Of a DNA stretch of 64,000 bases, positions 36,001-39,000 are shown piece after piece. The first letter of the stretch is position 1. Every line of letters begins with the position of its first letter. Where the stretch lies: the NCBI RefSeq assembly GCF_054482525.1, contig NZ_CM137006.1; one strand, 5' to 3'. The position numbers were made by a program.

Positions 36001-39000
36001 AGCCTTCTTCTCCTGTTGGCGATGGCGGTGATACTGGAGGCGGGGATACGGGTGATGGTGATACCGGTGGAGGTGATACAGGCGGTGGTAACCCAAGTGG
36101 CAGTTCTGGCGGTGGTAATGGCTCAAGTATCACCAAAGGAGATATTCAGTCAGCTATCGAAGGTGCTTCACCTAAAATTGCCAGTGAGATTCATGATAAG
36201 TTAACAGAAAAAGATACCTCATCTGATGATAAAAAGTCGGCTGATGAACAGACTAAAAATAATATAAATCGTCTTGTTGACTCTATAAATAACCTTACTC
36301 GCGGAGCCGGACGTTTTGCTGATCCTTCTGGCGGCGATTCCCGTTATGGGGAGGGGGGGTCTGAATTAGATAGCGCTTCCACTTTAGCTGAATCTGAATT
36401 AGGAATTGCAAAGGATTCTCATGGTGCGTTATGGGAGGCTTTCTTAAATAAAGGTGCTATGTTGCCCAATTTACCTAATGGTAATGGTTGTTCTGATTTT
36501 ATTATTTTCCCCGGAGAGGTTTATCAGATCGATATTGGCTGCGATAAATTACTGACTATTAAAAATGCTCTTTCATGGGTTTTTTATTGCCTTACGTTCT
36601 GGTATGTATTTACTTCTTTAACTTCATTGCTTCGTAAAGGTGGTGAGTGATGCCTTTATTATTAGGTATTCCTGCATTGTTGCGTTTTCTTATTGGTCTT
36701 GTTCCTTTACTTATTGGCTATGCGGCAAGTTTTTTAGCTCGGCTTGCAACCAAAACAGGTTTAATAGCGGTTGCATTGGTTGCGCTAATTACAACAACTG
36801 TTACGCTTTTAATGCAGTACCTTGCTGAGGTCATGTATATCGGGTTACCCGCTGATTTTTCACATCTAATGGCGTCTGTACTGCCTGACCATTTTCAGGC
36901 GTGTGTTAACGTTATTATGGTTACTCGTATCAGTGTTTTTGTTTTCGATTTAAAACAAAAATTTCTTGATTATGCAAACAGGGTGATTTAAATGGCGGTT
37001 CATGTAGTAACAGGCAAATTAGGCTCAGGCAAGACACTGGTTAGTGTTTCCAGAATACAGGAAAGACTGGCTAAGGGTTGTCCTGTTGCCACTAATCTTG
37101 ATCTTAAATTGCATAATATGCCTATGGTTGGGCGTTATGCTAAAAAAACGCGCGTTATTCGTGTTCCTGATAAGCCTTCATTAAATGATTTACTGGCTAT
37201 TGGTATTGGAAATACATCTTACGATGAATCCCGCAATGGCCTTTTAGTGCTTGATGAATGTGGTACTTGGTTTAATTCCCGTTCATGGGGTGATAAAGAC
37301 AGACAACCTGTTATTGACTGGTTTTTACATGCCCGTAAATTAGGTTGGGATATTATTTTTTTGATTCAGGATATTTCGATAATGGATAAGCAAGCTCGTC
37401 TGGCACTTGCTGAACATGTTGTTTATTGTCGCCGTTCAGATAAATTAAACATTCCTTTTATTGGCTCTATTATAAATTTAGTTTCAGGAGCGCGATTTTC
37501 TTTACCAAAGGTACACTTTGGTATTGTTAAATATGGTGATAACGTTAATTCAATTACTGTTGATAAATGGATATACACCGGAAAATCATTATATTCCGCC
37601 TACAATACAAAACAGGTTTTTACTGATAACTATCCGCATGGTGCTTATTCTCTTTTACCGCCATTTATTACACATGGCCAGTTTTCTGTTCACAAAGGAC
37701 TTAATTATTATATGCGCCTCACGAAAATTTATTTCCGAAAATCAAACCGATTAATATTAATGCTTTCATTTTTTGCCTTTGGGCTTGGGCTTGGCTTCTG
37801 GCTACAATCTGGTAAGAATGCCGATGAAATTTCGGCTATTAAATCAGTTCATGCTGAACAGGTGAGGGCGGTAACACCTGACAGTACCAGCGATTTACCG
37901 AGACTTTCTATTGATTCTTTCTCTCAGCTTGGTTTTGATGTTTCTGTTACGTTTGTTGACGCTAAGGGTATGAAGTACCAGTATTTTGATTTAATTAAAG
38001 ATGGTTATTCCGTTGATATTAAAGATGCCTGCCGAATTGTTATCAGAAAAGGCCATTATTTACAAAGCGTCACCTGTCAGGAGTAATATTACTATGCGTT
38101 TATTTTGCATTGCCATCTTATTCATTTATTCTTTTTGTGTTTCTGCTGAAACTGTTAATCTTAATAATTCATCCGTTCGTTCATTTGTCCAGTGGTATTC
38201 ATCAAAAACTGGTAAGCCTGTTATTGTTAACCCCGATGTTAAAGGCTCCGTAACAGTATTTAATGCTGATGTTAATCCCACAAATATTGATGACTTTTTC
38301 AAATCTGTTCTGAATGCTAATGGATTTGTCATGCTTTCTGGTAATCCTGCGGTAGTATCTTTGCCGTCAAAATTACCGTCACAGATGGCATCAGACCCTG
38401 ATGATTCCGATAATCAGTCTTATGACTCTTTTCCGCCAGAGCCATCCTGTCAGCCAGCGCCTGTGGCGCTCACTGTCAGAAATTTTAAGCTGACAAAAGT
38501 ACGAGCGTCTGATGTTCAGCAACTGGTTAAAATTTATCTGGATTCGAATGGCGGGGGTAATGTCGTGGATTATCCCGGCAATAACTCCCTGATTGTATCT
38601 GCGCCTGACGAGCTACTGCCTGTTCTGTCCAATTTCATTAACTCAGTTGATGTTGCCCGTGATCAGGTACTCATTCAATCGCTCATGTTTGAAACCAGTT
38701 TGTCTGATGGTGTTGATTTGTCATTTGCAGCTGGCTCTGCATCCGGCCATAAGGTGGCGGGGGGTTTTAATACTTCTGCGCTGGGTAATGCTCTTTCTAC
38801 GGTGGGCGGCTCTTTTGGTATTTTTGATGGTAACGTGTTGGCGCTGTCTCTGCGTGCTGTCCAGAGTAATTCACGCTCTAAGGTGATTTCAACACCGCGC
38901 ATTCTTACTCAGTCCGGTCAGACTGGTTATATTTCCGTAGGTAAGAATGTGCCGTTTATCACAGGAAAGGTAACGGGTGAATCTGCTGGGGTAAATAATC

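Follow-up and report, generated by a model that had tools for sequence, protein, structure and literature searches.

Does gene I of the filamentous prophage on contig NZ_CM137006.1 (RefSeq assembly GCF_054482525.1) carry an internal start for a nested gene XI, as gene I of M13 does, and is the assembly machinery around it preserved? We analysed a stretch of 64,000 nucleotides from this contig (called the window here; one strand, numbered from its first letter). Nested gene I/gene XI arrangements are described for 'most filamentous phages' (Loh et al., PMC5408679). The arrangement is textbook knowledge for the Ff phages and is expected in a well-preserved M13/IKe-like phage; the case described here is an unannotated instance of it.

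Gene I and its internal ATG

The features that define the nested arrangement are the following.

36992..38086, plus strand: gene I (pI, Zot-family assembly ATPase), copy 1 of a tandem array; 364-aa open reading frame identified by tblastn, Pfam and PHROG
37712..38086, plus strand: candidate gene XI (pXI, 124 aa), nested in frame from gene I codon 241; ATG aligned to M13 Met241
37751..37807, plus strand: predicted single transmembrane (TM) segment common to pI and pXI, codons 254–272; top Kyte–Doolittle 19-residue window (1.88)

The identity of gene I is unambiguous. Its product is 64.8% identical to IKe pI and 53.6% identical to M13 pI over 99–100% of the length (tblastn), and it matches the Pfam Zot family PF05707 (E=7e-40, 137 bits against a cutoff of 20.3) and PHROG 1675, 'protein I of M13' (E=3e-175). 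The Zot/ATPase domain comprises residues 2–180 (Pfam).

The preliminary description of this DNA had noted an in-frame methionine at codon 241 of gene I. Frame arithmetic and translation agree with it: the ATG at 37712–37714 is in frame, (37712−36992)/3 = 240, which makes it codon 241, and the sequence from there reads MRLTKIYFRK. The same description had put this methionine immediately before the TM segment. It is indeed upstream of that segment, but 13 residues away, at the head of a positively charged stretch and not adjacent. The stretch that precedes the TM segment, MRLTKIYFRKSNR, carries a net charge of +5 (residues 241–254). The TM stretch itself (residues 254–272) is LILMLSFFAFGLGLGFWLQ, and it is the sole strongly hydrophobic 19-residue stretch in pI. 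The candidate pXI would begin with the basic segment, continue through a single TM helix and end in a periplasmic domain that contains C347 and C362; the ATPase domain would be absent from it.

Equivalence with the M13 gene XI start

In M13 pI (NC_003287), Met241 is followed by KLTKIYLKK. That M13 pXI starts at codon 241 of gene I had been stated in the preliminary description, and two sources agree on it: the annotated gene XI of phage FfIris (PP430148; 4824..5150, within gene I at 4104..5150) begins at codon 241, and Loh et al. 2017 (PMC5408679) give position 241 as the internal start of pXI. We aligned six pI sequences (window, M13, IKe, If1, I2-2 and PEar6) with MAFFT, and all six internal methionines share one invariant column (M13 Met241, IKe Met242, If1 Met241). 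The difference between the numbers 241 and 242 comes from an indel of one residue around position 216. The M13 pXI start therefore falls at the equivalent position of the window gene and not elsewhere, and this equivalence holds in both the 6-sequence and a 72-sequence MAFFT alignment.

A wider set of relatives was drawn from 80 IMG/VR loci, which yielded 72 distinct proteins (51–100% identity to the window protein), 70 of them full-length at the gene XI start. The start column is ATG in 69/70 of these and GTG in one. The exception (L048, IMGVR_UViG_2740892187_000001) has the GTG at gene I codon 239 and keeps a GAGG Shine–Dalgarno (SD) motif 6–7 nt upstream. GTG encodes valine inside pI, but it is also a bacterial start codon. 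The residues that flank the column vary among the relatives, with Y, K, Q, F, V or I at −1 and R, K or T at +1. In M13, the M241L variant of pI is fully functional when pXI is provided separately (PMC5408679), so that Met241 is unneeded by pI itself. Its role as an initiation codon would be the simplest explanation for the conservation of this column. With the start aligned, an ATG or GTG in 70/70 relatives and a methionine dispensable for M13 pI, the preliminary view that the nested organisation is kept in this prophage is upheld.

Putative ribosome-binding site and codon choice upstream of the start

37694..37699, plus strand: SD-like AAAGGA, 12 nt before the internal ATG; anti-SD duplex of −5.3 kcal/mol

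An SD-like sequence had been proposed as a check of the start, and the AAAGGA motif is present where it would be sought, although its 12-nt spacing makes the site imperfect. The duplex of the motif with the 16S 3′ end (−5.3 kcal/mol) ranks in the top 5% of gene I positions. Among the 64 ATG, GTG and TTG codons of gene I in any frame, only the ATG at 37712 has an upstream duplex that reaches −5 kcal/mol. The usual SD-to-start spacing in E. coli is 5–10 nt. Initiation at 37712 is probably weak, because the 12-nt spacer exceeds this optimum. SD-like motifs are also found upstream of the internal methionine in other phages: AAAAGGGA, at 13 nt, in IKe, I2-2 and PEar6; AAAGAGGGA in If1; and TAGGT, 6 nt before the gene XI start, in M13.

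Codon choice upstream of the start was compared within two clades, where the counts come from phylogenetically related sequences and so overstate independence, at a high within-clade dS of 0.4–0.7: in a clade with 58% GC (36 sequences), the third codon before the start encodes Arg in 35 and is AGG in 35/35 of these, against just 2.2% AGR among the other Arg codons of the same genes, while in the window's own E. coli clade (13 distinct sequences) Arg at −6 is AGA or AGG in 9/9 (background 28%) and Gly at −5 is GGA or GGG in 12/13 (background 23%). The AGG at −3 in the 58%-GC clade gives GAGG with a 6–7 nt spacer. Although the residues encoded at −6 and −5 vary in the E. coli clade (K/R, G), A(A/G)AGG(A/G) is preserved by the choice of codons. 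As read from the sequences, codon usage ahead of the gene XI start points to nucleotide-level selection.

The RNA around the start is predicted to be open. The 100 nt around the internal start fold weakly (−5.7 kcal/mol, where shuffled sequences average −9.3 kcal/mol; z = +1.4), and the region from the SD to +10 is at the 95th percentile of predicted unpaired probability within gene I. A scan of synonymous variation along gene I in 8-codon windows, made in four sequence groups, placed the region upstream of the ATG only at the 8th–30th percentile, which is non-significant alone; the 8 codons upstream of the ATG lie at the 8th–13th percentile of gene I synonymous variation. Within gene I, synonymous variation was lowest at alignment columns ~283–294 (~37840–37875) and in the last ~25 codons (~38010–38086), in both the E. 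coli clade and the IKe clade; the low values at the 3′ end fit the ribosome-binding site and start of gene IV. Sigma-70-like matches, sought as an internal promoter for gene XI, numbered 10 in 35000–39700 vs 11.9 expected from shuffles, that is, no excess, and an Rfam scan of 30000–41000 matched no family.

Could Met241 merely be a conserved residue of pI, located in the basic amphipathic stretch ahead of the TM helix, with full-length pI the only product? The surrounding M-[RK]-x-T-[KR]-I-Y is a conserved protein motif, so a protein constraint could hold Met241, and such a reading would fit the suboptimal 12-nt spacing and the non-significant synonymous scan. We consider it improbable, since pI with M241L works in M13 (PMC5408679), the sole non-ATG variant among 70 relatives is GTG, itself a start codon, the rare AGR and GGR codons are retained exactly where the SD arises, and unusually little pairing is predicted for the local RNA.

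Integrity of pI and of the assembly genes

37013..37036, plus strand: Walker A GKLGSGKT, codons 8–15 including K14, present in pI and absent from pXI; invariant columns G8 to T15
37241..37261, plus strand: Walker B region LLVLDEC, codons 84–90 (D88, E89 and C90); invariant in the alignment
38030..38077, plus strand: periplasmic cysteine pair C347 and C362 (M13 C332 and C347); invariant columns
38094..39359, plus strand: gene IV secretin (pIV), 421 aa, outer-membrane partner of pI/pXI; full-length match (Pfam Secretin, E=7e-45; N0; Secretin_N)

The preliminary description had gone on from the internal start to an intact assembly machinery. This does not follow from one ATG. Intactness is supported instead by the Walker A and B motifs, G29, G118, the cysteine pair, the full-length pIV and core genes, and the low dN/dS of gene I. 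In M13 pI, residues K14, D88, E89, C90, G29, G118 and both periplasmic cysteines are essential (PMC5408679). All of them are retained in the pI of the window as invariant positions of the alignment (K14, D88, E89, C90, G29, G118, C347 and C362). The dN/dS of gene I is 0.05–0.06 overall, 0.03–0.04 over codons 1–240 and 0.06–0.13 over the pXI part, at dS of 0.4–0.7. By these estimates, gene I is under strong purifying selection. Genes II, V, VII, IX, VIII, III and VI gave end-to-end matches to Pfam or PHROG profiles, and the ten core phage genes are all full length against profiles. The nested gene I/gene XI arrangement, as predicted from sequence, is very probably functional because the essential residues are kept, gene I is under strong purifying selection and the ten core genes are full length.

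Gene II (33527–34579) also has an in-frame internal ATG, at 34265 (codon 247), which is preceded by the SD GGGAGA (−8.9 kcal/mol) and lies just before the G2P_X_C domain. The nested reading frame 34265–34579 is a candidate for the expected gene X.

Tandem array and dif junctions

31610..64000, plus strand: tandem array, a prophage unit of 8,743 bp repeated head-to-tail with 100% identity in at least 3.7 copies; runs off the window end
45735..46829, plus strand: second copy of gene I, with the same sequence as the first and its internal ATG at 46455
54478..55572, plus strand: third copy of gene I, with the same sequence as the first and its internal ATG at 55198
63221..64000, plus strand: gene I copy 4 (internal ATG at 63941), cut by the window end
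31612–31648, 40355–40391, 49098–49134 and 57841–57877: dif-like junctions with an exact XerC arm and a XerD-like arm

The periodicity of the array is perfect, with every base from 31610 to 55257 equal to the base 8743 positions further on. At its first bases (31612, 40355, 49098 and 57841), each unit has GGTGCGCATAA, an exact match to the XerC arm of E. coli dif. This arm is followed by the 11-nt TGTGCTACACG and then by the XerD-arm-like TTATGTTGAAA, which gives an imperfect dif-like junction. No stretch of the window matches the complete E. coli dif (28 bp) at 3 mismatches or fewer; the right end of the array is outside the window. By these junctions, and by its place beside hipBA as in related E. 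coli prophages, the array is integrated at the chromosomal dif site, with dif-like junctions of the kind that mark CUS-1 and Ypf-phi.

The neighbours of the array are hipB and hipA, the latter truncated; an IS-like fragment lies between them and the array. Related E. coli strains have an intact hipA, and the prophage, there too in tandem, starts ~75 bp after it. These hipA-adjacent prophages are 86–98% identical to the unit over 68–79% of it. The truncated hipA (region 30650–31569) stops after its N-terminal domain, at ~108 aa (Pfam Couple_hipA). After it, on the minus strand, are two abutting reading frames (30891–31355 and 31333–31569), which by eye only look like a broken IS transposase and are without a Pfam match. 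A reading frame of 1,806 aa at 24753–30173, upstream of hipBA, encodes an autotransporter, and its counterpart in a related strain is annotated as 'ECSE_1600 family autotransporter'.

The accessory and regulatory parts of the unit, at 31712–33320 and 39360–40352, differ from those of IKe and Ff, and this part of the unit also varies among the related prophages, which cover just the 68–79% given above. The reading frames in these parts are:

31712–32044, minus strand: reading frame without annotation
32068–32364, minus strand: weak YbjQ-like reading frame
32519–32809: DUF3892 protein
32874–33320, minus strand: helix-turn-helix (HTH) repressor-like gene, by profile matches
39907–40152, minus strand: reading frame without annotation (PHROG 21003)

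Because the prophage has this repressor-like gene, the whole operon may be mostly silent in the lysogen. The repressor-like gene would equally suit an array that is a silent or defective remnant, in which gene I and its internal start were kept through recent copying and not for their function. The truncated hipA and the IS-like fragment that abuts the array would suit it too, and the copies are 100% identical, so that comparison within the genome is uninformative on selection. Comparison across genomes speaks against a remnant, with a gene I dN/dS of ~0.05 at dS of 0.4–0.7 across different hosts. The ten full-length core genes also do, and identical tandem copies are the product of actively re-integrating dif phages such as Ypf-phi (PMC4266046). 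We regard the remnant as very improbable, even less probable than a methionine kept for pI alone. The conserved internal start and its SD support treating this dif-integrated tandem prophage as probably production-competent and not as a remnant.

Proposed mechanism

We consider it very likely that the ATG at 37712 and the Ff gene XI start are homologous, and that a weak internal ribosome-binding site serves this ATG and yields a 124-aa pXI, which joins the pI assembly complex. We infer both the initiation at 37712 and a requirement for pXI in this prophage. Ribosomes would load independently at the weak internal site in the gene I mRNA (AAAGGA, the 12-nt A/U-rich spacer and the ATG), and the 124-aa product would be identical to the C-terminal third of pI. 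On insertion, the basic amphipathic N-terminus of this pXI would stay on the cytoplasmic side; a single TM helix would then lead to the C-terminal domain, with its cysteine pair, in the periplasm. By analogy with f1/M13, pXI, which has no ATPase domain, would co-assemble with full-length pI in an inner-membrane export complex. That complex would dock to the pIV secretin, and ATP hydrolysis by pI would extrude the filament. The pI/pXI/pIV export model on which this is based is from PMC5408679 and PMC10175506. The nested start adds nothing new on how pI and pXI work.

A shorter product that begins at another internal codon in place of 37712, for instance at the in-frame ATG of Met257 (37760), is scarcely credible and was rejected: this codon is inside the TM segment and without an SD (duplex of +0.3 kcal/mol), and it is not conserved in M13 or If1. 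Met131 was also considered as an internal start. It was rejected in spite of a duplex of −4.1 kcal/mol, as it falls within the ATPase domain and has no counterpart in M13.

For the start at 37712, the displaced SD is the only mildly unusual point, and it is shared by the IKe, If1 and E. coli-prophage lineages (12–13 nt), compared with 6–7 nt in M13 and the GC-rich lineage. From this difference, it is conceivable, though we think it rather unlikely, that pXI initiation in the former lineages uses a long-spacer or A/U-rich (S1-assisted) mode, with a pI:pXI ratio that differs between lineages. If true, the long-spacer mode would mean a tunable stoichiometry of the export motor, beyond a mere copy of Ff.

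Distribution and annotation

Megablast relatives of gene I are found in 54 of 5,426 complete E. coli genomes (~1%), and the best matches have 75.7–99.5% nucleotide identity. Positive E. coli genomes hold gene I at a median of 2 places and a maximum of 15. The 90% protein cluster of gene I also takes in Salmonella and Klebsiella. The exact 124-aa pXI product is not a called protein in a collection of 15 billion sequences. On related prophages, PGAP leaves gene XI unannotated and gives just 'zonular occludens toxin domain-containing protein', and the GenBank records of IKe, I2-2, PEar6 and If1 have no gene XI annotation. The practical value of the present result is mostly in annotation, as the nested gene XI is never reported by gene callers.

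A degenerate 29-mer around the start was searched in species-representative genomes and returned 4 odd contigs, none from Yersinia. One of them, from Izhakiella australiensis (NZ_MRUL01000039.1, an 8,271-bp contig with a coverage of 336), has the same gene XI start context. This contig may be the replicative-form genome of a filamentous phage in a non-Escherichia host. The other three matches, a Paenibacillus contig (0.57x coverage) and metagenome-assembled genomes (MAGs) of Bacteroides and Nanosynbacter, look like contaminants or mis-binned sequences.

Comparison with known filamentous phages

The sole match at the DNA level among phage records, by megablast with the whole unit, is a 488-bp stretch of I2-2 gene I at 75% identity; no close phage genome was found in them. 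At the protein level, pI of the window is 64–65% identical to those of IKe and PEar, 62% to that of I2-2, and 54% to those of If1 and Ff.

The candidate gene XI shares with that of the Ff phages (f1/fd/M13) the aligned in-frame ATG, at codon 241 in both, and an upstream SD-like element. Its product resembles Ff pXI in having a basic N-terminus, just one TM helix and, in the periplasmic domain, two conserved cysteines, and the flanking gene order VI–I–IV is also that of Ff. With pI only 54% identical, however, the product would be 124 aa vs 108 aa in Ff, with a TM region 4 residues longer and a longer periplasmic linker. The SD-like motif is 12 nt upstream, whereas TAGGT in M13 is at 6 nt. Genes I and IV are separate in the window (gene I stop at 38086, gene IV ATG at 38094) and overlap in M13. 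Unlike Ff, the phage is integrated and not episomal.

The Lineavirus phages (IKe, I2-2 and PEar) have the closest characterised pI (62–65% identity; 364 aa in the window vs 365 aa), and the YYM-R-x-TKIYF context of the start is identical in these phages and the window. They are episomal and 6.6–6.9 kb in size, whereas the phage of the window is 8.7 kb, integrated, and has an extra divergent regulatory and accessory module.

In its organisation as a prophage, the unit resembles CUS-1 of E. coli O18:K1:H7 and Ypf-phi of Yersinia pestis, which we compared by published description. Both are 8.7 kb, integrate at dif in 2–4 tandem copies and have an imperfect dif at the junctions (PMC4266046). The 8.7-kb unit, the use of dif and the tandem copies are the same here, as is the layout of a divergent repressor followed by the replication, structural and assembly modules (PMC4266046).
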